The notes under the pieces are model-generated. The model was not told where the DNA came from and searched no databases. It was given only the letters and a program-made list of their open reading frames with translations. Source: Candidatus Stammera capleta (GTDB lineage Bacteria > Pseudomonadota > Gammaproteobacteria > Enterobacterales > Enterobacteriaceae). From it: 64,000 nt of DNA. Every line of letters begins with the position of its first letter. The first letter of the stretch is position 1. Positions 7,568-58,710 of this stretch are shown here, piece after piece. The stretch lies in NCBI GenBank assembly GCA_015134375.1, contig CP043980.1:96384-160383 (forward strand), written 5' to 3'. The position numbers were made by a program, and so were the translations under genes.

Positions 7568-7924
7568 GGGGTTGTATAGGATTTGACAAAATATATAAAT
7601 TCTAATGTGCATGTCGAGGTAACGATAGGCCGCGTTAAAAATCGTAATTTTTAATTGCAAATAATAATAAAAATTATGCTTTAGCAGCCTAAAAACTGTA
7701 AAAGCCATTTTTATGTATATTTTTTCTCTTTATAAACATAAAAATGTTATACAAAAGAGAATAAATTATAGAGGCTTATATCTATAATCATATATAAAAA
7801 AAATAAGCTAAGTTATTTATAATTTTTTTTATTTATAATAAATAATTAAAACAAAAATAAAATAAACATGTAGTAACAAAAGAATGAATTATTTTGGAAG
7901 CGGGTTCGAATCCCGCCAACTCCA
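7568..7924 (+). ncRNA. ssrA: tmRNA (ssrA), one-piece
   Basis: 5' GGGGTTGTATAGGATTTGAC.. and 3' ..GGAAGCGGGTTCGAATCCCGCCAACTCCA form a tRNA-Ala-like domain with G3-U70. The tag ORF starts at resume codon GCA 7657 and ends at TAA 7690-7692, encoding ANNNKNYALAA. Blocks homologous to E. coli ssrA are present (TGTGCATGTCGAGG, GGCCGCGTTAAAAA). No encoded CCA. Confidence 0.9.
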
Positions 7925-27676: not shown

Positions 27677-27749
27677 GCGAATATTGTATAAAGGTTTATT
27701 ATATTAGCCTTCCAAGCTAAAGATACGGGTTCGAATCCCGTTATTCGCT
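27677..27749 (+). tRNA. tRNA-Gly (anticodon UCC)
   Basis: Acceptor GCGAATA/TATTCGC. Anticodon stem TTAGC/GCTAA, loop CTTCCAA. T-arm ACGGG-TTCGAAT-CCCGT. Confidence 0.85.
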
Positions 27750-30326
27750 TTTTAATATTTTGATTTTTAAATTTATATTTTTATATAAATTAAATATATT
27801 TTTATTTTTTATAATATTTTTATAATTTTTAAATTTTATTTTATTTAAATTATTATTATTATTATTTTTAATTAAATAAATATTATTAATAATATTTTTT
27901 TTTATTTCTATTTTACTATTATATATATATATATTAAATTTTTTTTTTAAATTTAATTTTCTTATTAATATAATTATTTTTTTTATAATTTTAAAATAAA
28001 TTATATATTTTTTTTTATTATATAATTTTTTTATTTTTGGTAATTTACTTAAAAGTATAGATTTATTATTTTTATTTTTTTTATTTAAATTATTAAATTT
28101 TTTTCATAAATATTCTGTTATAAAAGGTATAATTGGATGTGAAAATTTTAGTATATTTTTATATATTTTTTTTAAAGTTTTAATATTTTTTTTATTAATT
28201 TTTTTATTTTTTATAGTTAATTTAAATAATTCAATATATCAATCACAAAATTTATTTTTTAAGAAATTTTTTAATAAAATATATATTTTATTAAATTTAT
28301 AATTATTTATATATTTATTATATTTTTTTATAAATTTATTTAATTTATTAATTATTCAATAGTCAATTAAATTATTTTTATTTTTTTTTATAGTTTTTAT
28401 TTTATTTTTTATATTTAAAAATATAAATTTTGATATATTTCATAATTTATTACAATAATTATAACTTTCGTTTAATTTTTTTATATTAAATTTTATTTTT
28501 AATTTTGAATTTGATATTGATATTAAATTTAATCTTAAAATATCTGTATTATGTTTTTTTATACCATTAGGAAAAAATTTTTTTGTTAATTTTATAATTT
28601 TTTTTTTTTTATTTTTTTTAATTAAATTTTTAGTTCTTTTTTTTATTAAATTTTTTATTGATATTCCATTAATAACATCTTTAGGATCTATTATATTTCC
28701 AATAGATTTAGACATTTTATTTCCTTTTTCATCTGTTATTAAACCAGTTATAAAAATTTTTTTAAATGGTATTATTGATTTTTTTTTTTTTTTTATTATT
28801 GATAATGTTATCATTATCATTTTAGATATTCAGAAAAATATTATATCAAATCCACTTACTATTAAATTTATAGGGTAAAAATTATTAAATATTTTATTTT
28901 TTTTAGGTCAACCTAAACTTGAAAAAGTTCATAATGAAGATGAAAATCAAGTATCTAATATATTTTTATCTTGTTTTAAATTTATATTTTTATTTATATT
29001 ATATTTTTTAATAATATATTTTTTATTTTTACCTAAATATATTTTATTATTATTATCATATCAAATAGGTATTTTATGTCCTCATTTTATTTGTCTAGAT
29101 ATACATCAATCTTTAATATTTTTCATTCAATAAAAATATAAATTTTTATATTTTTTTGGAATAAATTTTATTTTTTTTTCTTTAACATATTTTATTGCTT
29201 TTTTAGAAAGTGTTTTTGTTTTAATAAATCATTGTTTTTTTAATATTTTAATAATTTTTGTTTTTGTTTTAATACTGTAATTTATTTTTTTTTTTATTTT
29301 TTTTATTTTATAAATATTTTTTTTTATATTTAATATTTTTATTATTTTATTTTTATTTAAATTTTTATATTTATTTTTAATTTTTTTTATTTTTTTAAAT
29401 TTATAATTGAAAATATTAAATATGTTTGATATTTTTCCTTTTTTATTAAAAATATTTATTATATTTAATTTTAGTTTTTTTATTAACTTTATATTTTTTG
29501 AATTTATTTTATTTGTATTTAATATATATATATTTTTTTTTAAATTTAAATTTTTATTAAATATAAAAATTTTAATTTTTTTTTTATTTATAGGATTAAT
29601 TATATATTTATGTTTGTTAACTAATTTTATAAAAGGTTTATAATTACTTTTAATAAATATAGCTATATTAGATAATATATATTTTATATTTGTTGTTGGT
29701 ATTATTAATATAATATTAGAATTTATAAGTTTATATTTAATATAATATTTATTAATTTTTTTTTTTTTTTTATATATTTCTAAATCAGAAATAGTAGTTT
29801 TTAATTTTTTATCTCAATTTATTATTTTATATTTTTGATATATTAATTTTTTTTTATATAATTTTATAAAAGCTTTATTAACTGAATTAGAAAAATTATT
29901 ATTTAATGTAAAATTTTTTATTTTTCAAAAAATACTACATCCTAATTTTTTTTTTTGTTTATTTATTTTTTTTTCATATTTTTTTTTTCATTTTCATAAT
30001 TCTTTAATTAATTTTTTTTTATTATATTTTATTTTTTTTTTTTTTAAATATTTTTCTACTACTATTTGAGTTGATATTCCTGCATGATCTGTACCTGTTA
30101 TTCATAATGTATTATATCCTGACATTTTTTTATATCTTATAATTATATCCATAATTGTTTGTTGATATGCATGTCCTATATGAAGATTTCCAGTTATATT
30201 TGGAGGAGGCATAATTATTGAAAAATTTTTATTATTTTTATTTTTATTTGGATTAAATAATTTTTTTTTTAATCAAAATTTGTATATTTTTTTTTCTTTT
30301 TTAATTAGATCTAATATATTTTTCAT
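27741..30326 (-). CDS. valS: valyl-tRNA synthetase
   Basis: Only one fragment (28440..28820, with [12 protein letters not shown]) appears in the track. Read with TGA=Trp, one frame runs from ATG 30326 ([69 protein letters not shown]) through [58 protein letters not shown] and [13 protein letters not shown] to TAA 27741-27743. I checked every codon from 28440 downward. The 3' end overlaps tRNA-Gly by 9 nt (convergent). Confidence 0.92.
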
Positions 30327-30333
30327 ATATTTT

Positions 30334-31763
30334 TTAATTATAATATTTTTTTATAAATTTTGTTATTAAATAAATTGTTCTACCAGTAGAACCTTTGTTA
30401 TTTGATGCTGTGCCAGCTATATCTAAATGTGCTCATTTGTTTTTTTTAATAAATTTATTTAAAAAACATGCTGATATAATTGTGTCAGCATAATTTTTAT
30501 TACTACAATTTTTTATATCAGCTATATTTGATTTTATATATTTATTATATTTTTTAAACAAAGGTAATTCTCAAATATAGTCTTTTATTTTTTTACTTAT
30601 TTTAATTAATCTTTTTGATATTTTTTTATTATTAGTAATTAATGCACTTATCTTTTTTCCTAATGTATATATACATGATCCTGTTAATGTAGCTATAGTT
30701 ATTATTAATTTAGGTTTATATTTATTTGAGTATGATATTGCATCACATAATAATAATCTACCTTCAGCATCAGTATTTATTATTTCTATAGTTTTCTTTG
30801 ATAATGTTTTTATTATATCTCCTGGTTTAGTAGAATTATTATTTATCATATTTTCTGCACAGCATAATATTCCAATTATATTTATATTATATTTAAGTTT
30901 ATTAATAATATATATTATTGATAAAACTATTGCTGCTCCAGACATATCAAATTTCATTTCATTCATTTTAATATATGGTTTAAGACATAATCCTCCTGTA
31001 TCAAATGTTATACCTTTACCTATTATTATTATTGGTTTTTTTTTTTTTTTTTTATATTTTATTTTAATTAATTTAGATTTATTTAAAGATCCTTTATTTA
31101 CAGATAAATATGAATTCATACCTAATTTTTTCATTTTTTTTTCATTTAGATATGAAATTTTAATATTTTTACCTTTAATTAATTTTTTTGCTTTTTTTAG
31201 TATATAGTTTGTATTACAAATATTTGGTGGCATGTTACAAATATTTCTATTTATTTTAATAGCTTTTGATATTATTTTAGATTTATATATTGTATTTAAT
31301 ATTTTTTTTTTTTTTTTTTTTTAATGTTAAAATAAAAATGTGTTTTTATTTTTTTTTTATTTTTTTTAAATTTATTGAATTTATATGTATTATATTCAAT
31401 AATTTTTATTAAATTAAATATTTTTCAGTATATATTTTTTATTTTTAAATTTTTTAATAAAAATATTAAATTTTTATATTTATTATTATTTATTATTTTT
31501 AATATTTTTTTAACTAATATTTTAAATATATTAAAATTTATTTTATTAATTTTATATTTAATTATTATAATTTTTATTTTATTTTTTTTTTTATTTATTT
31601 TATATATATTATATTTTTTAATATTATTATTATTTTTAATTTTTTTATATATAATATTTTTATATTTTTTTAATTCTATTTTATTATTTTTATTTATAAA
31701 AATAATTATACAATCATATTTATTTATATTTTTATTTATATTTGTTTCTATTTTGTATTTCAT
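30334..31763 (-). CDS. pepA: leucyl aminopeptidase PepA, reading frame interrupted inside an A21 tract (needs +1/-2 nt to be read through)
   Basis: The N-terminal domain is in the frame of track ORF 31425..31763 (MKYKIETNINKNINKYDCIIIFINKNN..IEYNTYKFNKFKK..). The catalytic domain is in the frame of track ORF 30571..31233 and continues to TAA 30334-30336 (..AIKINRNICNMPPNICNTNYL..GKGITFDTGG..MKFDMSGAA..NTDAEGRLLLCD..WAHLDIAGTA). The two frames differ by one nt and meet only within the homopolymer 31302-31322. Confidence 0.85.
31302..31322 (-). repeat. A21 homopolymer on the pepA coding strand (T21 on + strand)
   Basis: Counted directly: 9 + 10 + 2 consecutive T on the + strand. This is the longest homopolymer seen in the window and the site of the pepA frame change. 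Confidence 0.9.
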
Positions 31764-32389: not shown

Positions 32390-32400
32390 AAAATAAATAA

Positions 32401-32474
32401 CAGGGGCAGAAGGAATTGAACCCTCAACCTATGGTTTTGGAGACCATCGTTCTACCTAATTAAACTATACCCCT
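32401..32474 (-). tRNA. tRNA-Trp (anticodon CCA)
   Basis: The reverse complement reads AGGGGTATAGTTTAATTAGGTAGAACGATGGTCTCCAAAACCATAGGTTGAGGGTTCAATTCCTTCTGCCCCTG. Anticodon stem ATGGT/ACCAT, loop CTCCAAA. It is collinear with E. coli tRNA-Trp. The D-stem is GTTT/GAAC, i.e. A at position 24. Confidence 0.9.
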
Positions 32475-32485
32475 ATTTAATTTAT

Positions 32486-32558
32486 TAGGTCTAAGTGGAA
32501 TTGAACCACTGACCTCACCCTTATCAGGGGTGTGCTCTATCCTCTGAGCTATAGACCT
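32486..32558 (-). tRNA. tRNA-Ile (anticodon GAU)
   Basis: The reverse complement reads AGGTCTATAGCTCAGAGGATAGAGCACACCCCTGATAAGGGTGAGGTCAGTGGTTCAATTCCACTTAGACCTA. Loop CTGATAA. It is close to E. coli tRNA-Ile1. Confidence 0.9.
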
Positions 32559-33031: not shown

Positions 33032-34693
33032 ATGAAAACAAAAAATTATTGTTTATTTACTAATAAAAATAAAAAATTTGATAATAATATATATAATATA
33101 TTAATTAATGGTGGTTTTATTAGAAAATTATGTTCAGGTATTTTTATTATATTACCTAATGGTTTAAGGATTATTAATAATATTATTAATATAATAAAAT
33201 TAGAAATGAATAATTTTAATTGTTTAGAAATAAAATTACCTTCTATCATACCTTCAATATTATGAAAAAAAAGTGGTAGATTAAAAAGTTATGGTGATGA
33301 ATTATATAAAATATATGATAGGAATAATAAATTATTTTTAATTTCTCCTACTAATGAAGAAGTTATTACTAATTTTTTTTTTAAAGAAAAATATTTATTA
33401 AATAATTTCCCTTATATTTTTTATCAAATTAATGATAAATTTAGAGATGAAATTAGACCTAGATTTTCATTAGTTAGATGTAAAGAATTTATTATGAAGG
33501 ATGCTTATTCATTTCATAAATCATTAAATTGTTTAAATAATATTTATTATAAAATGATTGATATTTATAAAAAAATATTTAATTTACTTGGTTTAAATAT
33601 TTTTTATAAAAAAGCTAAATGTGGTAAAATAGGTGGTAGTTATTCACATGAATTTCATGTTTTATCTAATTATGGTGAAAATAATATATTAATTAATAAA
33701 ATTATATATAATAAAATATTTTATAAATTTAAAAATAAAAATATTTATTTAAATAATTTAAAGTATTTATATATAAATAAAAAAGATAGTTTTATTAATA
33801 AAGTTAATTTTTTTAATTTTGTTAAAACTTATATATTGAAAATTTTTTTTAGAAGTAAAATAATTTTTTTAATATTATTAATTGCTTATTATAATAAAAT
33901 AGATTTAAATAAAGTTAAAAAATTATATCCTTTATGCATTAAAATAAAAATTTTAGATAAAAAGGATATTTTAAATATTTTTAATATAAATTATATATTT
34001 TTAGGACCATTTGGTTTTAATTTTAGAATAATAGCAGATAATTTTTTAATAAATTATAAAAATTTTTTAATAGGTTCTAATTTAAATAATTATATTTTTA
34101 AAAATGTTAATTGAATTTTACATATTAATGTTTCAAATTTTGTTGATATAAAAAAAAATTATAGTTTTTTTGTAGATAAATGTAAATATTTAGATTTATT
34201 TAAAGAAAAAAAATCAATGGAAATTGCACATGTTTTTAAATTATCTAATTATTATTCAAATTTTTTTAATAATAATAATAATGATATATTTATGGGATGT
34301 TATGGTATAGGTGTTTTTCGTATTTTTATTAGTTTAATTGAGAGTTATAGTATTTCAGGAAAATTAATATTACCTTTATCTATATCTAATTTTAAAATAG
34401 GTATTATACCAATTAATATGTATAATATTAAAATTGTTTATAATTTATCTTTTAAAATATATAGATTTTTAATTAAAAATAAAATTGAAGTATTAATAGA
34501 AAATAGAGATATATATTTTGGTAATATGATAAATGATTTTGAATATATAGGTATTCCTAATATTATAATTATTAGTGAAAGATTATTGTTAAATAACTTA
34601 ATTGAATTTAGAGATAGATTTAATAAATTAAATCAATTTATAAATATAAATAAAATTTTTGATTTTTTATTATTTAAATATATTAAAAATTAA
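33032..34693 (+). CDS. proS: prolyl-tRNA synthetase (bacterial type with INS domain)
   Basis: Track ORFs 33032..33265, 33494..34114 and 34217..34693 are all in one frame and bridged by TGA codons. Motifs: W-KKSGRLKSYGDELY, FRDEIRPRFSLVRCKEFIMKDAYSFH, GGSYSHEFHV, MGCYGIGVFRI. Confidence 0.9.
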
Positions 34694-36000
34694 TAATTTT
34701 TTTTAAATATTATATTTCAATTTTTTTTTTTATATTTACCATATTTAGTTACAAATAAATTTGGACTTAATATAGGTTTTTTATTATAAAATATTATTGG
34801 AGTAAATTCTCTTTCTCAAGGTAATATATTATATTCTTGTCATATTTTTTTAATTTTTTTTTTTTTTTTTTTATATATTTGTATTTTTTTTTTTATTTTA
34901 AATTTTATATATATTTTTTCATTTTTATAAGGTTTTCTTATTTTATTTTTATATTTATATTTTTTTTTGTTTTTTTTATTTATATATAATATTCCAATTT
35001 TATTAGGTAATTTTATATATTTATTTTTTTTATTTCATAAAATTTTTTTATTTTTTAATTTATTTATTTTTTTACTTAAATAAAGTTTATTTTTATATTT
35101 ATTTATATTAAATTTTTTAAAGTTTAATTGAAAATATTCTTTTTTTTTATTTTTTTTAATATTTTTTATAAGTAAATTAATTAATTTATATGAAAGTACT
35201 TTTTGTTTATTTAAATTTATAAATTTTCTTAATATTATTATAATTTCTTCTTTTTTTAATTTTATTATTTTTTTTATGTTAATTATTTTATTTTTTATTA
35301 TTTTTTTAATTTTTTTTTTCATTAAGTATTTTATTAATTTATTTTGATTTTTACATATTTTTGAATTTCTTATTATTGATGATATAAAAAATGGTCATCT
35401 TTTATTTATTATTGGTAATATTTTAATTCTTAGAAAGTTTCTATCTAATTTTAGATTTTTGTTTTCTATATCTTCTATTCATTTAATTTTTTTTTTTATA
35501 GCATATCTTTTAATTTCTTTTTTATCTATATTAATTAATGGTCTTATAATGTTTAAATTATTTATTTTTTTTTTTTTTTTTATTCCTGTTAATCCTTTAA
35601 TTCCACATCCTCTTATTAAATATAAAATAATAGTTTCTAAATTATCATTTTTATGATGTGCAGTTAGTAATATTTCTTTTTTTTTTATGTATTTTTTATA
35701 ATAACTATATCTTTTTTTTCTTAAATTATTTTCTAAATTTTTTTTATATTTTTTATATATTTTTTTAATTATTAATTGTATTTTTAATTTTTTACAAAAA
35801 TTTATACAATGTTTTTCTATTTTTATAGATTTATTATTTAAATTATGATTTATATGTATTGCTCTTACATTTTTTTTTTTAATTTTTTTTATTATATAAA
35901 GTAATACTGTTGAATCTAATCCTCCACTATATCCTATTAAAAAATTTTTTTTTTTTTTTATTAAATTTTTAACTTTATTTTTTATTGAAAGTTTATTCAT
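34690..36000 (-). CDS. tilS: tRNA(Ile)-lysidine synthase TilS
   Basis: PP-loop LIGYSGGLDSTVLL. The frame of track ORFs 35479..36000 and 35035..35322 continues through TGA codons (WIEDIENKNLKLDRNFLR.., RWPFF..) and an in-frame T19 tract to the TilS C-terminal motif KKIWQEYNILPWEREFTPIIFYNKKPI and TAA 34690-34692. I checked codon by codon from 35035 to the stop. Total 436 aa. The stop overlaps the proS stop. Confidence 0.85.
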
Positions 36001-41761: not shown

Positions 41762-42961
41762 ATGAAAATATATTTAGTAGGGGGATTTGTTAGAGATAAG
41801 TTATTAAAAATAAAAAGTTCTACAGATAAAGATTGAGTAGTTGTAGGTTCTAGTTATAATAAAATGATTAATTTAGGTTATAAATCTGTAGGAAAAATTT
41901 TTCCAGTTTTTATTCATCCTATTACTAAAGAAGAATATGCTTTAGCACGTAAAGAAAAGAAAATTGGTTTAGGATATAAAGGATTTAAATGTAATTATTC
42001 AAATAAAATTTCTTTAAAAGATGATTTATATAGAAGAGATTTAACTATAAATGCAATTGCTATGGATTGTTATGGAAATTATTATGATCCTTTTAAAGGT
42101 ATTTTAGATATAAAAAATAGAATTATTAGACATGTTTCTATTTATTTTCAAGATGATCCTTTAAGATTAATAAGAATAGCTAGATTTTATTCTTATTTAT
42201 TTGATTATAAATTTAGGATTAATTTTGATACTTTCATATTAATGAAGAAAATAGTTTTTAATAATGAATTAGTTAATATTTCTCCTGAAAGAATATGAAT
42301 AGAATTGAAAAAAGTTTTATCTTATAAATATTGTTTTTTTTTTTTTGTTATATTAAATGATTGTAATGCTTTAAATATAATTTTTCCTGAATTATTTTTT
42401 GTTTTTAATAATTTTAAATATAAATTTTATTTTTATTTATTTTTTAAAAAAGTTGATTTTTTTAAATATAATTTAGATTTAAATTTTGTTTTTTTATGTT
42501 TTTTTTTTTATAAAACTATTTTTTCAGATGAATATTTTATATATTATAAATTTACATTTAATAAAATAAGAAATTTTTGTTTAAGATTTCATTTACCTAG
42601 TAAATATTTTGTTTTATTTAGTAGAATTTTTTTTATATTAAAAGATATTTTTTTTTATAAAAAAAAAAAAAAATCTATTTTTATATTAGATATTTTTTAT
42701 AAAGCAAATATATTTAATAATTTAAGTATTTTGTTTAATATTTTAAAAGTAATTGATATTTTAATTAAATTTAATTTTAAAAATAAAAATATTTTAATTT
42801 TTTTACAAAATAATTTATATAAAATATTTAATTTATTAAATAATATCAATTATTATAAATTTATTAATTTTGTTAATAAAAAAAATATAAAAAAAAATAT
42901 ATATAATTTACGTTTAATTAAAATAAATAATTTTTTAAAAAAAATTAAAATTTTTCATTAA
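41762..42961 (+). CDS. cca: CCA-adding tRNA nucleotidyltransferase
   Basis: MKIYLVGGFVRDKLL..DKDWVVVGSS..VGKIFPVFIHPITKEEYALARKEKK..RRDLTINA..DPLRLIRIARF..ISPERIW-IELKK aligns residue for residue with the E. coli Cca head domain. Track ORFs 41864.. and 42305.. are in frame. Confidence 0.9.
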
Positions 42962-56203: not shown

Positions 56204-57040
56204 TTAATATTTTTTTATATAAAAAACATTATTTTCTAATCATTTAAATTTTATATTTTTATATTTTTTTATAATTTTTTTTTTTTGGTTACCTACTTCA
56301 CATATTAAAATACCTTTTTTATTTAAATAATTTTTAAAATTATTTATAATTTTATTTATTATATATAATCCATTATTTTTTGTAAAAAGTGATATTTTAG
56401 GTTCATAAGAATATTCTTTAGGTAAAAAATTTATTTCTTTATATGATATATAAGGTGGATTAGTTATAATTAAATCATATTTTTTTCTAATATTTTTAAA
56501 AATATTTGATATAATTAATTTTATATTTTTACGTTTATGTATTTTAATATTTATTTTAGCAATTTTTAATGCTTTTTTACATATATCTGATGCGTCTATC
56601 TTTGATTTTGGGTACATATATGAACATATTATAGCTATACTTCCATTTCCAGTACATAAATCTAATATTTTTTTTGGATTTATATTATTTTTTATAATTT
56701 TTTTTTTTATTATTATATGTCCTATAGGACTTCTAGGTATTATTGATCTTTTATCTATATAAAATTTTTTATTGCAATATCATATATTTTTAGTAATATA
56801 TGCTATAGGTATTTTTTTATTTATTCTTATTTTTATATACTTTATAATTTTTTTATTTATTTTTTTATTTATATAAATATATTTATATTTTTTATTTATA
56901 TTTAATTTTAATATTGAATATATTAATAATATTGATTCAGAATATTCATTATATGTTCCATGTCCATAAAATAATTTATTTTTTTTAAATATTTTATATA
57001 TTTTTTTTATTAAATTAGATAATAATAATTTATTTTTCAT
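56204..57040 (-). CDS. prmB: ribosomal protein L3 glutamine N5-methyltransferase (PrmB-like)
   Basis: Track ORFs 56780..57040 and 56240..56617 share one frame. Motifs: LFYGHGTYNEYSESILLI, IPIAYITKNIW-YCNKKFYIDKRSIIPRSPIG, LDLCTGNGSIAI, DLIITNPPYI, GILICEVGN, FKW-LE. These match E. coli PrmB better than PrmC. The gene ends at TAA 56204-56206. Confidence 0.8.
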
Positions 57041-57366: not shown

Positions 57367-58710
57367 ATGTATATAAAGATTTATTTAAAAACTTGAGGTT
57401 GTCAAATGAATCATTATGATTCTATGAAAATAATTAATCATTTAAATTATTTTAATAAATATAAATTTATTAAATCTTTTTATAATTCTGATATTATAAT
57501 ATTAAATATGTGTTCTGTAAGAAAAAAATCAGAAGATAAAGTTTTTAATTATTTAAAAAAAATAAATATTTTAAAATTAAATAATAATAATTTAATAGTA
57601 TGTATTTGTGGTTGTTTTTCTTTAAAAAGTAAAAATATTTTTTTAAAAGATTATGATATAATAAATATTATATTTAGTTCTAAATATATAAATAATTTAC
57701 ATTTTTTAATAAATGAATATAAAAAAAAAAAAAAAAAAATAATTTATATAAATAATTATAAAAATATTTATAAAAGTAATATAAAAGATTTATATATTAA
57801 AAAAAATTATTTTAAAAATGTTAAGGTATATTCTTATGTATCAATAATGCAAGGTTGTAATAAATATTGTTCTTATTGTATTGTTCCATTTACTAAAGGA
57901 AAAGAAATAAGTAGATCTCCAGAAGATATAATTAATGAAATATGTTATTTATCAAAAAATAATATCAAAGAAATAAATTTATTAGGACAAAATGTAAATT
58001 CTTATAATAGTTTTTTTAGTAATGGAAATATATGTAAATTTTCTGATTTATTATATTTGATATCAAATATTAAAGATATTGAAAGAATAAGATTTACTAC
58101 TAGTCATCCTATAGATTTTAAAGATGATATAATTAATTGTTATAAAAATATTAGTAAAATAGTTAATTATTTACATTTACCTGTTCAAAGTGGTTCTGAT
58201 AAAATTTTAAAATTAATGGGTAGAAAATATAATATATTATATTATAAAGAATTAGTTAATAAAATTTTAAGTGTAAGACCAAATTTAACTTTTAGTACAG
58301 ATTTTATAGTTGGTTTTCCTAATGAATCTGAAAATGATTTTATATTAACTTTAGATTTGATAAATGAAATAAAATTTGATCATAGTTATATATTTATGTA
58401 TTCTCCTAGACCTGGTACTAAATCTTATAATTATATTGATAATATAGATATGGTAGAAAAAAAACGTAGATTTTTTGAAATTAAAAAATTAATTGATAAA
58501 AATGTTTTATATTATAATAATAAAATGTTAGGTAATAAATATAAAATTTTAGTAGAAGGATTATCAAAAAAAAATAGAAAATATTTATATGGTCGTACAG
58601 AAAATAATAGAAAAATTTTTTTTTTAGGTAATATTAATTTATTAGGTAATTTAATTAATATTAAAATATATAAATTAAAAAATAATTATTTATATGGAAA
58701 ATTAATTTAA
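57367..58710 (+). CDS. miaB: tRNA-i6A37 methylthiotransferase MiaB
   Basis: The true start is ATG 57367: MYIKIYLKTWGCQMNHYDS (TGA 57394-57396 is the Trp of the conserved KTWGCQMN). Radical-SAM motif CNKYCSYCIVP. It contains an in-frame A19 tract (57721-57739). Confidence 0.92.

Follow-up and report, generated by a model that had tools for sequence, protein, structure and literature searches.

The tRNA-Trp gene of the Stammera capleta clade, a group of Enterobacterales symbionts of tortoise beetles, raises the question of how UGA can be read as tryptophan by a tRNA that keeps the anticodon CCA. The original prediction for the 64,000-nucleotide stretch of Stammera DNA analysed here (hereafter the window) was that A24 in the D stem, the G24A change of the classical E. 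coli Hirsh suppressor, could provide a mechanistic route to the reassignment. The identification of G24A as the Hirsh change agrees with published accounts (PMC13092985, PMC11805395), and the question addressed here is what part this base plays in the altered code.

The window genome uses code 4, with UGA as a Trp codon. At a G+C content of 14.8%, the open reading frames of the window add up to 19,961 aa under table 4 compared with 14,814 aa under table 11, and 47 of them together contain 92 in-frame TGA and 5 TGG codons, UGA accounting for ∼95% of Trp codons. The same 47 ORFs end in TAA (44) or TAG (3) and never in TGA. When five genes were compared with their orthologs in L260 (CP144793.1), a Stammera genome without UGA as a sense codon, 11 of 12 window TGA codons were found opposite TGG. 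The correspondence is visible position by position in the alignment of TilS, the tRNA(Ile)-lysidine synthase encoded at 34690–36000 on the minus strand (Pfam PF01171, PF11734), whose gene has six in-frame TGA codons, all six aligned to TGG in code-11 Stammera. Another ORF, for an 861-aa LeuRS-like class-I aminoacyl-tRNA synthetase (27741–30326, minus strand; assigned from the Pfam domains of its orthologs), contains 19 in-frame TGA codons and no TGG. The counts, the ortholog alignments and the missing TGA stops bear out the predicted abundance of UGA-Trp codons. Moreover, the TGG share of Trp codons (5.2%) equals the share of G-ending codons for Lys, Glu, Gln, Leu and Arg (3.8–6.8%), and there is thus no visible usage penalty on UGA.

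The tRNA-Trp gene, as identified by ARAGORN and Rfam RF00005, lies on the minus strand at 32401–32474 (74 nt, with no encoded CCA tail). ARAGORN calls tRNA-Trp(cca) at 32400–32475 of the minus strand, and RF00005 matches 32401–32474 with 67 bits (E=2e-12), the gathering score being 29. Read along the minus strand the sequence is AGGGGTATAGTTTAATTAGGTAGAACGATGGTCTCCAAAACCATAGGTTGAGGGTTCAATTCCTTCTGCCCCTG, and the gene end ...CCCCTG is followed by TTATTT. Since the CCA tail is not encoded, a CCA-adding enzyme is needed, and a nucleotidyltransferase of this type is present in the window at 41762–42961 on the plus strand (Pfam PF01743, PF12627). The anticodon C34 C35 A36, in the loop CUCCAAA, occupies 32438–32440 of the minus strand (C34 is base 32440, A36 base 32438); ARAGORN and direct reading agree with the earlier statement that it is CCA and not UCA. 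The 5′ strand of the D stem, G10 U11 U12 U13, lies at 32462–32465 (minus strand; U11 is window base 32464) and the 3′ strand, G22 A23 A24 C25, at 32449–32452 (minus strand; A24 is window base 32450). The D stem is GUUU/GAAC, with a U11-A24 pair and a U-G wobble at 13-22, and the predicted pairing of A24 with U11 can therefore be read directly from the sequence. The E. coli tRNA-Trp used as its reference (GUUC/GAGC, U11-G24) is equally sound; it matches all 5426 complete E. coli genomes, with an identity of at least 99% in 5394 of the 5426, and the matches listed are 100% identical and annotated as tRNA-Trp.

Elsewhere in the molecule, position 9 is A, so that the A9C change is not present, and the anticodon stem consists of five pairs, AUGGU/ACCAU, all of them Watson-Crick and including a paired A27-U43. 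The discriminator is G73, and the A1-U72 end is as in E. coli trpT. The CCA anticodon, G73 and A1-U72 are identity elements for TrpRS. In an alignment of 17 tRNA-Trp sequences 99.2% of the cloverleaf cells were paired and 12 pairs covaried; pair 11-24 was UA in 14 sequences, UG in two and CG in one. In alignment column 25 all 12 distinct Stammera sequences have A, the base found in E. coli, Arsenophonus and Zinderia being G. Minimum free energy folding of the tRNA-Trp by itself gave no cloverleaf (z = -1.29); such folds are uninformative for AT-rich tRNAs, and the structure was taken from the covariance model.

The gene is embedded in an arrangement that is typical of the clade. A tRNA-Ile(GAU) gene at 32486–32558, likewise on the minus strand, precedes tRNA-Trp with a gap of 11 nt, the two are placed between efp and hinT-proS-tilS, and the order efp - trnW(CCA) - trnI(GAU) - hinT - proS - tilS is conserved throughout the Stammera clade. 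The neighbours of trnW are not conserved in Buchnera, Carsonella, Vidania and similar standard-code symbionts. The ProRS adjoining tRNA-Trp has homologs in ∼34 related genomes of 212–325 kb, followed by Buchnera at less than 40% identity, and L11 homologs were found only in Stammera and Buchnera. The window also carries an ATP synthase operon, which is missing from both Zinderia and Nasuia, and a GroEL that we take to be close to that of E. coli; an origin in Zinderia or Nasuia, suggested at first by the GC content and UGA=Trp, was rejected on these grounds. Its leucyl aminopeptidase gene (Peptidase_M17) is represented by two minus-strand ORFs of 299 and 155 aa (30334–31233 and 31296–31763) compared with a single ORF of 478–494 aa in relatives, and may be split or decaying.

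Sixteen tRNAs and one tmRNA were identified in the window by ARAGORN, and among the 16 there is neither a second tRNA-Trp nor a tRNA with a UCA anticodon. A complete sister chromosome, CP144833.1 (297,036 bp, 18.2% GC, 29 tRNAs and a tmRNA), gives the same picture, with one tRNA-Trp(CCA) and no UCA anticodon among all 29 tRNAs. The hidden tRNA-Trp(UCA) that would have refuted the original prediction was consequently found neither in the window nor on this chromosome, in agreement with the literature: Stammera has been described as having UGA=Trp with trnW(CCA) kept (PMC10540940), Table 2 of PMC13462651 gives CCA but not UCA for 49 Stammera genomes, with prfB in 15 of the 49, and the gTranslate preprint reports tRNA-Trp(UCA) absent from every Stammera genome. 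CP144833.1 (L263–L269) was deposited, and is indexed in PLSDB, as 'plasmid pStChz2'. The window tmRNA (7568–7924, plus strand; tag ANNNKNYALAA) is directly upstream of tRNA-Val, and CP144833.1 shows the same arrangement with the tag AKNNNYALAA.

With respect to release factors, CP144833.1 has only one class-I release-factor ORF, with the RF1-type motif GGQHVNTTDSA, and no release factor was seen among the scanned ORFs of the 64-kb window. According to the gTranslate preprint, five basal Stammera genomes use code 11 and all of them have prfB. However, ten code-4 Stammera genomes are also reported to have prfB (PMC13462651, gTranslate preprint), and RF2 loss is thus no clean correlate of the code. 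A small methyltransferase with an NPPY motif and an MTS domain, of the PrmC/PrmB type, is encoded in the window at 56204–57040 on the minus strand; if its product is PrmC, which methylates release factors, it would be of some interest beside the RF2 question.

In code-4 Stammera the combination of CCA and U11-A24 was found at 15 of 15 loci read. Pairs 10-25, 13-22, 27-43 and 30-40 vary among these tRNAs, and weakened anticodon stems occur in the form of G27.A43 (L123, a distant member of the clade, tRNA at 2254–2328), G27-U43 (L122, L190 and L228) and G30-U40 (L244, L245, L246, L252 and L259). In the alignment of the loci read, no position of tRNA-Trp separates code-4 from code-11 Stammera.

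Stammera genomes that still use the standard code provide the natural control. L260 and two further genomes, L261 (CP144787.1) and L262 (CP144774.1), do not use UGA as a sense codon and evidently belong to the basal code-11 lineage. Twelve genes of L260 contain no in-frame TGA and 29 TGG, Trp is encoded by TGG throughout in L261 and L262 with no TGA at Trp positions, and a histidine-kinase gene of L262 apparently ends in TGA at the expected C-terminus. The tRNA-Trp of all three has the anticodon CCA, the D stem GUUU/AAAU with U11-A24, and an anticodon stem in which all five pairs are Watson-Crick. In other words, A24 fails to tell the tRNA that reads UGA from its non-suppressing counterpart within one lineage, and because it is present in the closest standard-code relatives it cannot be what switched the code. 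The occurrence of A24 in close relatives with UGA as stop had been named beforehand as a finding that would refute A24 as the mechanism of the reassignment, and it is the one made here. As a route to UGA reading it retains partial support insofar as A24 may be a permissive factor, whereas it does not hold as a mark of recoded genomes.

One gene of the code-11 group deserves separate mention. The tilS gene of L261 (6675–7973) contains a single in-frame TGA at a position that is Cys in the other five Stammera TilS sequences, within an HC.N.C motif, and is otherwise intact with 10 TGG codons. Either an essential gene has recently acquired a nonsense mutation or become a pseudogene, or this UGA is read through despite RF2.

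Outside Stammera, E. coli and five reduced Arsenophonus genomes have U11-G24, and on the sequences compared A24 is a derived state when set against Enterobacterales that are free-living or have moderately reduced genomes. It is nevertheless not peculiar to the clade. When the tRNA-Trp was compared with PLSDB by BLAST, the best matches after the Stammera chromosome came from Bacilli, and ARAGORN on the PLSDB records showed the D stem GUUU/GAAC in Listeria monocytogenes (2.9-Mb record) and Bacillus sp. (5.5-Mb record), as well as in Paenibacillus, Priestia, Enterococcus, Latilactobacillus, Streptococcus and B. velezensis. The D stem is GUUU/AAAC in B. thuringiensis and GUUC/GAAC in Aeromonas caviae, so that A24 is native to the tRNA-Trp(CCA) of all these organisms, every one of which uses the standard code. 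Conversely, the Zinderia tRNA-Trp has C11-G24 together with an unpaired A27/C43 (PMC13092985, Supplementary Table 5). Given A24 in code-11 Stammera, Bacilli and Aeromonas, and C11-G24 in Zinderia, A24 is neither sufficient nor necessary for reading UGA with CCA only.

A genome scan in which positions 11 and 24 were left free initially suggested a narrower distribution. Among the 120 matches listed, CCA genes with U11-A24 came from seven Stammera only, and the other A24 gene among those 120 tRNA-Trp genes was a tRNA-Trp(UCA) of Metamycoplasmataceae. That scan was limited to one D-loop type (AATT-type), and a confinement of A24 to recoded lineages was rejected as an artefact of this requirement, since the PLSDB search found A24 in Bacilli. 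In viral-contig tRNA-Trp, the 11-24 pair was C-G in 89, U-G in 19, U-A in nine and another combination in three of the 120 matches listed. Two individual tRNAs are recorded here as observations in their own right. Aeromonas caviae L256 (NZ_AP026896.1, 4588186–4588379), free-living and on the standard code, has a tRNA-Trp(CCA) gene just downstream of EF-Tu that combines A24 with an unpaired G27.A43, two features that have each been linked to UGA reading. Mycoplasma sp. Bg1 (LSMX01000002.1, L211) has a tRNA-Trp(CCA) with C11-G24, G27.A43 and U28-G42, that is, the 4-bp-stem type in a Mollicute.

Several explanations for UGA reading by this tRNA have to be weighed against this distribution. That G24A itself enabled or caused the reassignment of UGA to Trp, and sets the lineage apart from its standard-code relatives, is in our judgment highly improbable. 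Hirsh genetics (PMC13092985, PMC11805395), the derived state of A24 relative to E. coli and Arsenophonus, and the restriction of U11-A24 CCA genes to seven Stammera among the 120 matches listed speak for it; yet that scan covered a single D-loop type, and among tRNAs with other D loops standard-code Bacilli normally have A24 and Aeromonas has it as well. Furthermore, all three code-11 Stammera examined carry A24, and A9C and/or G24A is present in 2414 of 3438 natural 4-bp-stem tRNA-Trp(CCA) genes (PMC13092985). At the other extreme, A24 could be functionally irrelevant, an AT-directed transition that, under extreme AT pressure, converted the ancestral U11-G24 wobble into a Watson-Crick pair, UGA being read by the low near-cognate activity intrinsic to any tRNA-Trp(CCA) in the absence of RF2. 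This would accord with A24 in code-11 Stammera, standard-code Bacilli and Aeromonas, with UGA reading by Zinderia without A24, with G to A as the direction of mutational bias at 14.8% GC, and with the low-efficiency reading of UGA reported for wild-type E. coli tRNA-Trp (PMC12213064). We nevertheless consider complete irrelevance unlikely. Despite the bias, C11-G24 is kept in 13 of the 16 window tRNAs, only Trp(CCA), Gly(UCC) and Leu(GAG) having U11-A24, which argues that D stems are not simply drifting; AT-rich reduced Arsenophonus symbionts keep U11-G24; and the effect of G24A on UGA reading in E. coli is large and well documented (PMC13092985, PMC11805395).

The mature tRNA might also differ from its gene, C34 being edited to U or changed to an A-pairing base, for instance lysidine introduced by a TilS of relaxed specificity, in which case UGA would be read as a cognate codon. 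If true, bacteria would have a counterpart of what is known from trypanosomatid mitochondria, where C-to-U editing of tRNA-Trp(CCA) lets UGA be read. The lack of a usage penalty on TGA relative to TGG would fit, as would the retention of tilS 2.2 kb away, TilS being the only C34-modifying enzyme seen near tRNA-Trp. However, tilS is required in any case for the 1559 ATA codons of the window and is also present in code-11 Stammera, and its proximity follows from the clade-wide synteny and has no link to the code. Moreover, the features that E. coli TilS recognizes in the acceptor stem and anticodon differ from those of tRNA-Trp. With RNA-seq of bacterial 4-bp-stem tRNA-Trp from other species showing no anticodon editing (PMC13092985), we regard a change at C34 as improbable. 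The chances are slimmer still that a weakened anticodon stem (the 4-bp-stem, Blastocrithidia-like type) lets CCA read UGA in this genome. Experiments in E. coli have demonstrated the effect, which has been put forward for Zinderia as well (PMC13092985), and some code-4 Stammera do have G27.A43, G27-U43 or G30-U40 while the three code-11 tRNAs are fully Watson-Crick. The window tRNA-Trp and its nearest relatives (L126, L129, L136, L167 and L208), on the other hand, have five Watson-Crick pairs in the anticodon stem; the window tRNA-Trp thereby falls outside the 4-bp-stem class as defined in PMC13092985 (27-43 unpaired, 7-nt loop, no A9C/G24A), the same survey puts Stammera in the 5-bp class, and Aeromonas combines G27.A43 and A24 with the standard code.

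We favor the explanation in which the sole tRNA-Trp(CCA), after the loss of RF2, accepts UGA as a near-cognate codon, with A24 as a permissive background at most, and give it a probability of about 0.5. According to this explanation a single tRNA-Trp would read UGA, C34 being near-cognate with the third-position A. Such reading would be workable since most code-4 Stammera no longer have RF2, which alone competes for UGA, and since a genome of ∼246 kb is under weak selection for rapid translation; we infer that C34 is unmodified and that the window genome is without prfB. In E. coli, A24 has been associated with faster forward rates and a stably bent A/T tRNA conformation (PMC11805395, PMC13092985). 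By analogy, U11-A24 would probably make UGA reading by the window tRNA-Trp more efficient, perhaps with help from ms2i6A37 made by a retained MiaB. A MiaB-type methylthiotransferase (UPF0004, radical SAM and TRAM domains by Pfam) is encoded at 57367–58710 on the plus strand, and its N-terminal 'KTWGCQMN.YDS' resembles E. coli MiaB. This enzyme probably makes ms2i6A37 on tRNAs for UNN codons, tRNA-Trp included, and may have a role in UGA reading.

As regards the order of events, the distribution of states across lineages places A24 before the code change. A24 was fixed in the common ancestor of all Stammera, either as a permissive background or possibly as a neutral, AT-directed repair of a G-U wobble, but not as the switch; the code would have switched when RF2 was lost or inactivated, after which UGG drifted to UGA. 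Near-cognate reading on such a background should be accepted with some caution. A24 is also found where UGA terminates normally, in code-11 Stammera, Bacilli and Aeromonas, and may contribute nothing; Zinderia manages to read UGA by CCA alone with C11-G24; and prfB is reported to be kept in the ten code-4 Stammera genomes mentioned above. In 2009 a model for Hodgkinia placed a distal, Hirsh-type change of the tRNA before RF2 loss (PMC2704378). That A24 was a true pre-adaptation, the extant code-11 Stammera being a surviving intermediate at 'step 1' of the ambiguous-decoding model, is a further reading to which we give less than even odds.

Much of the background to these results is already in the literature, which describes how Stammera decodes with CCA only, the model of a distal mutation, and 'G24A' tRNAs that occur in nature. 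We found no published statement of the Hirsh state in Stammera tRNA-Trp; the 2026 survey gives Stammera only as a 5-bp-stem case and, having explained Zinderia by its 4-bp anticodon stem, leaves Stammera unexplained (PMC13092985). Our results add complexity to this picture insofar as the Hirsh state predates the code change, and an attractive single-base explanation is thereby removed. At the same time, code-11 and code-4 Stammera form a natural pair with the same D-stem state in tRNA-Trp, RF2 being present on the code-11 side, and this pair could allow the contributions of tRNA background, RF2 loss and a possible C34 modification to be separated.

Among the known systems closest to the window tRNA is the E. 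coli Hirsh suppressor trpT(G24A) (Hirsh 1971), with which it shares the unchanged CCA, a U-A pair at 11-24 and A9; positions 1-5 of the acceptor stem and the anticodon loop are identical in the window tRNA-Trp and E. coli trpT. In contrast to the Hirsh mutant, A24 of Stammera is the wild-type state, fixed in the clade including those members that terminate at UGA. The hinge also differs, with G26, A27-U43 and A44 in the window compared with A26, C27-G43 and G44 in E. coli, and the D loop has 9 nt compared with 8 nt. The tRNA-Trp(CCA) genes with A24 in Bacilli have the same GUUU/GAAC D stem as the window, and that of Aeromonas has GUUC/GAAC. For B. subtilis, low-efficiency decoding of UGA as Trp is cited in PMC2704378 (Lovett 1991). 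Unlike Stammera, however, Bacilli and Aeromonas have kept the standard code and RF2, whereas in code-4 Stammera UGA makes up ∼95% of Trp codons.

Zinderia insecticola, XS4 and Blastocrithidia (PMC13092985, PMC12213064) resemble the window in having a sole tRNA-Trp(CCA) and UGA=Trp without a UCA tRNA, a likeness that in Zinderia extends to the tiny, AT-rich symbiont genome. The solutions differ in structure, Zinderia having C11-G24 and an unpaired A27/C43 and the window U11-A24 and a paired A27-U43. Mollicutes, Hodgkinia, Nasuia and mitochondria use the same UGA=Trp code, but there the anticodon of tRNA-Trp has been changed to UCA. Such an anticodon change is step 3 of the model of McCutcheon and co-workers from 2009 (PMC2704378, Fig. 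8), and it never happened in Stammera. Steps 1, 2 and 4 otherwise correspond to the order proposed for Stammera, which begins with a distal state of the tRNA and continues with the later loss of RF2 and then a drift from UGG to UGA.
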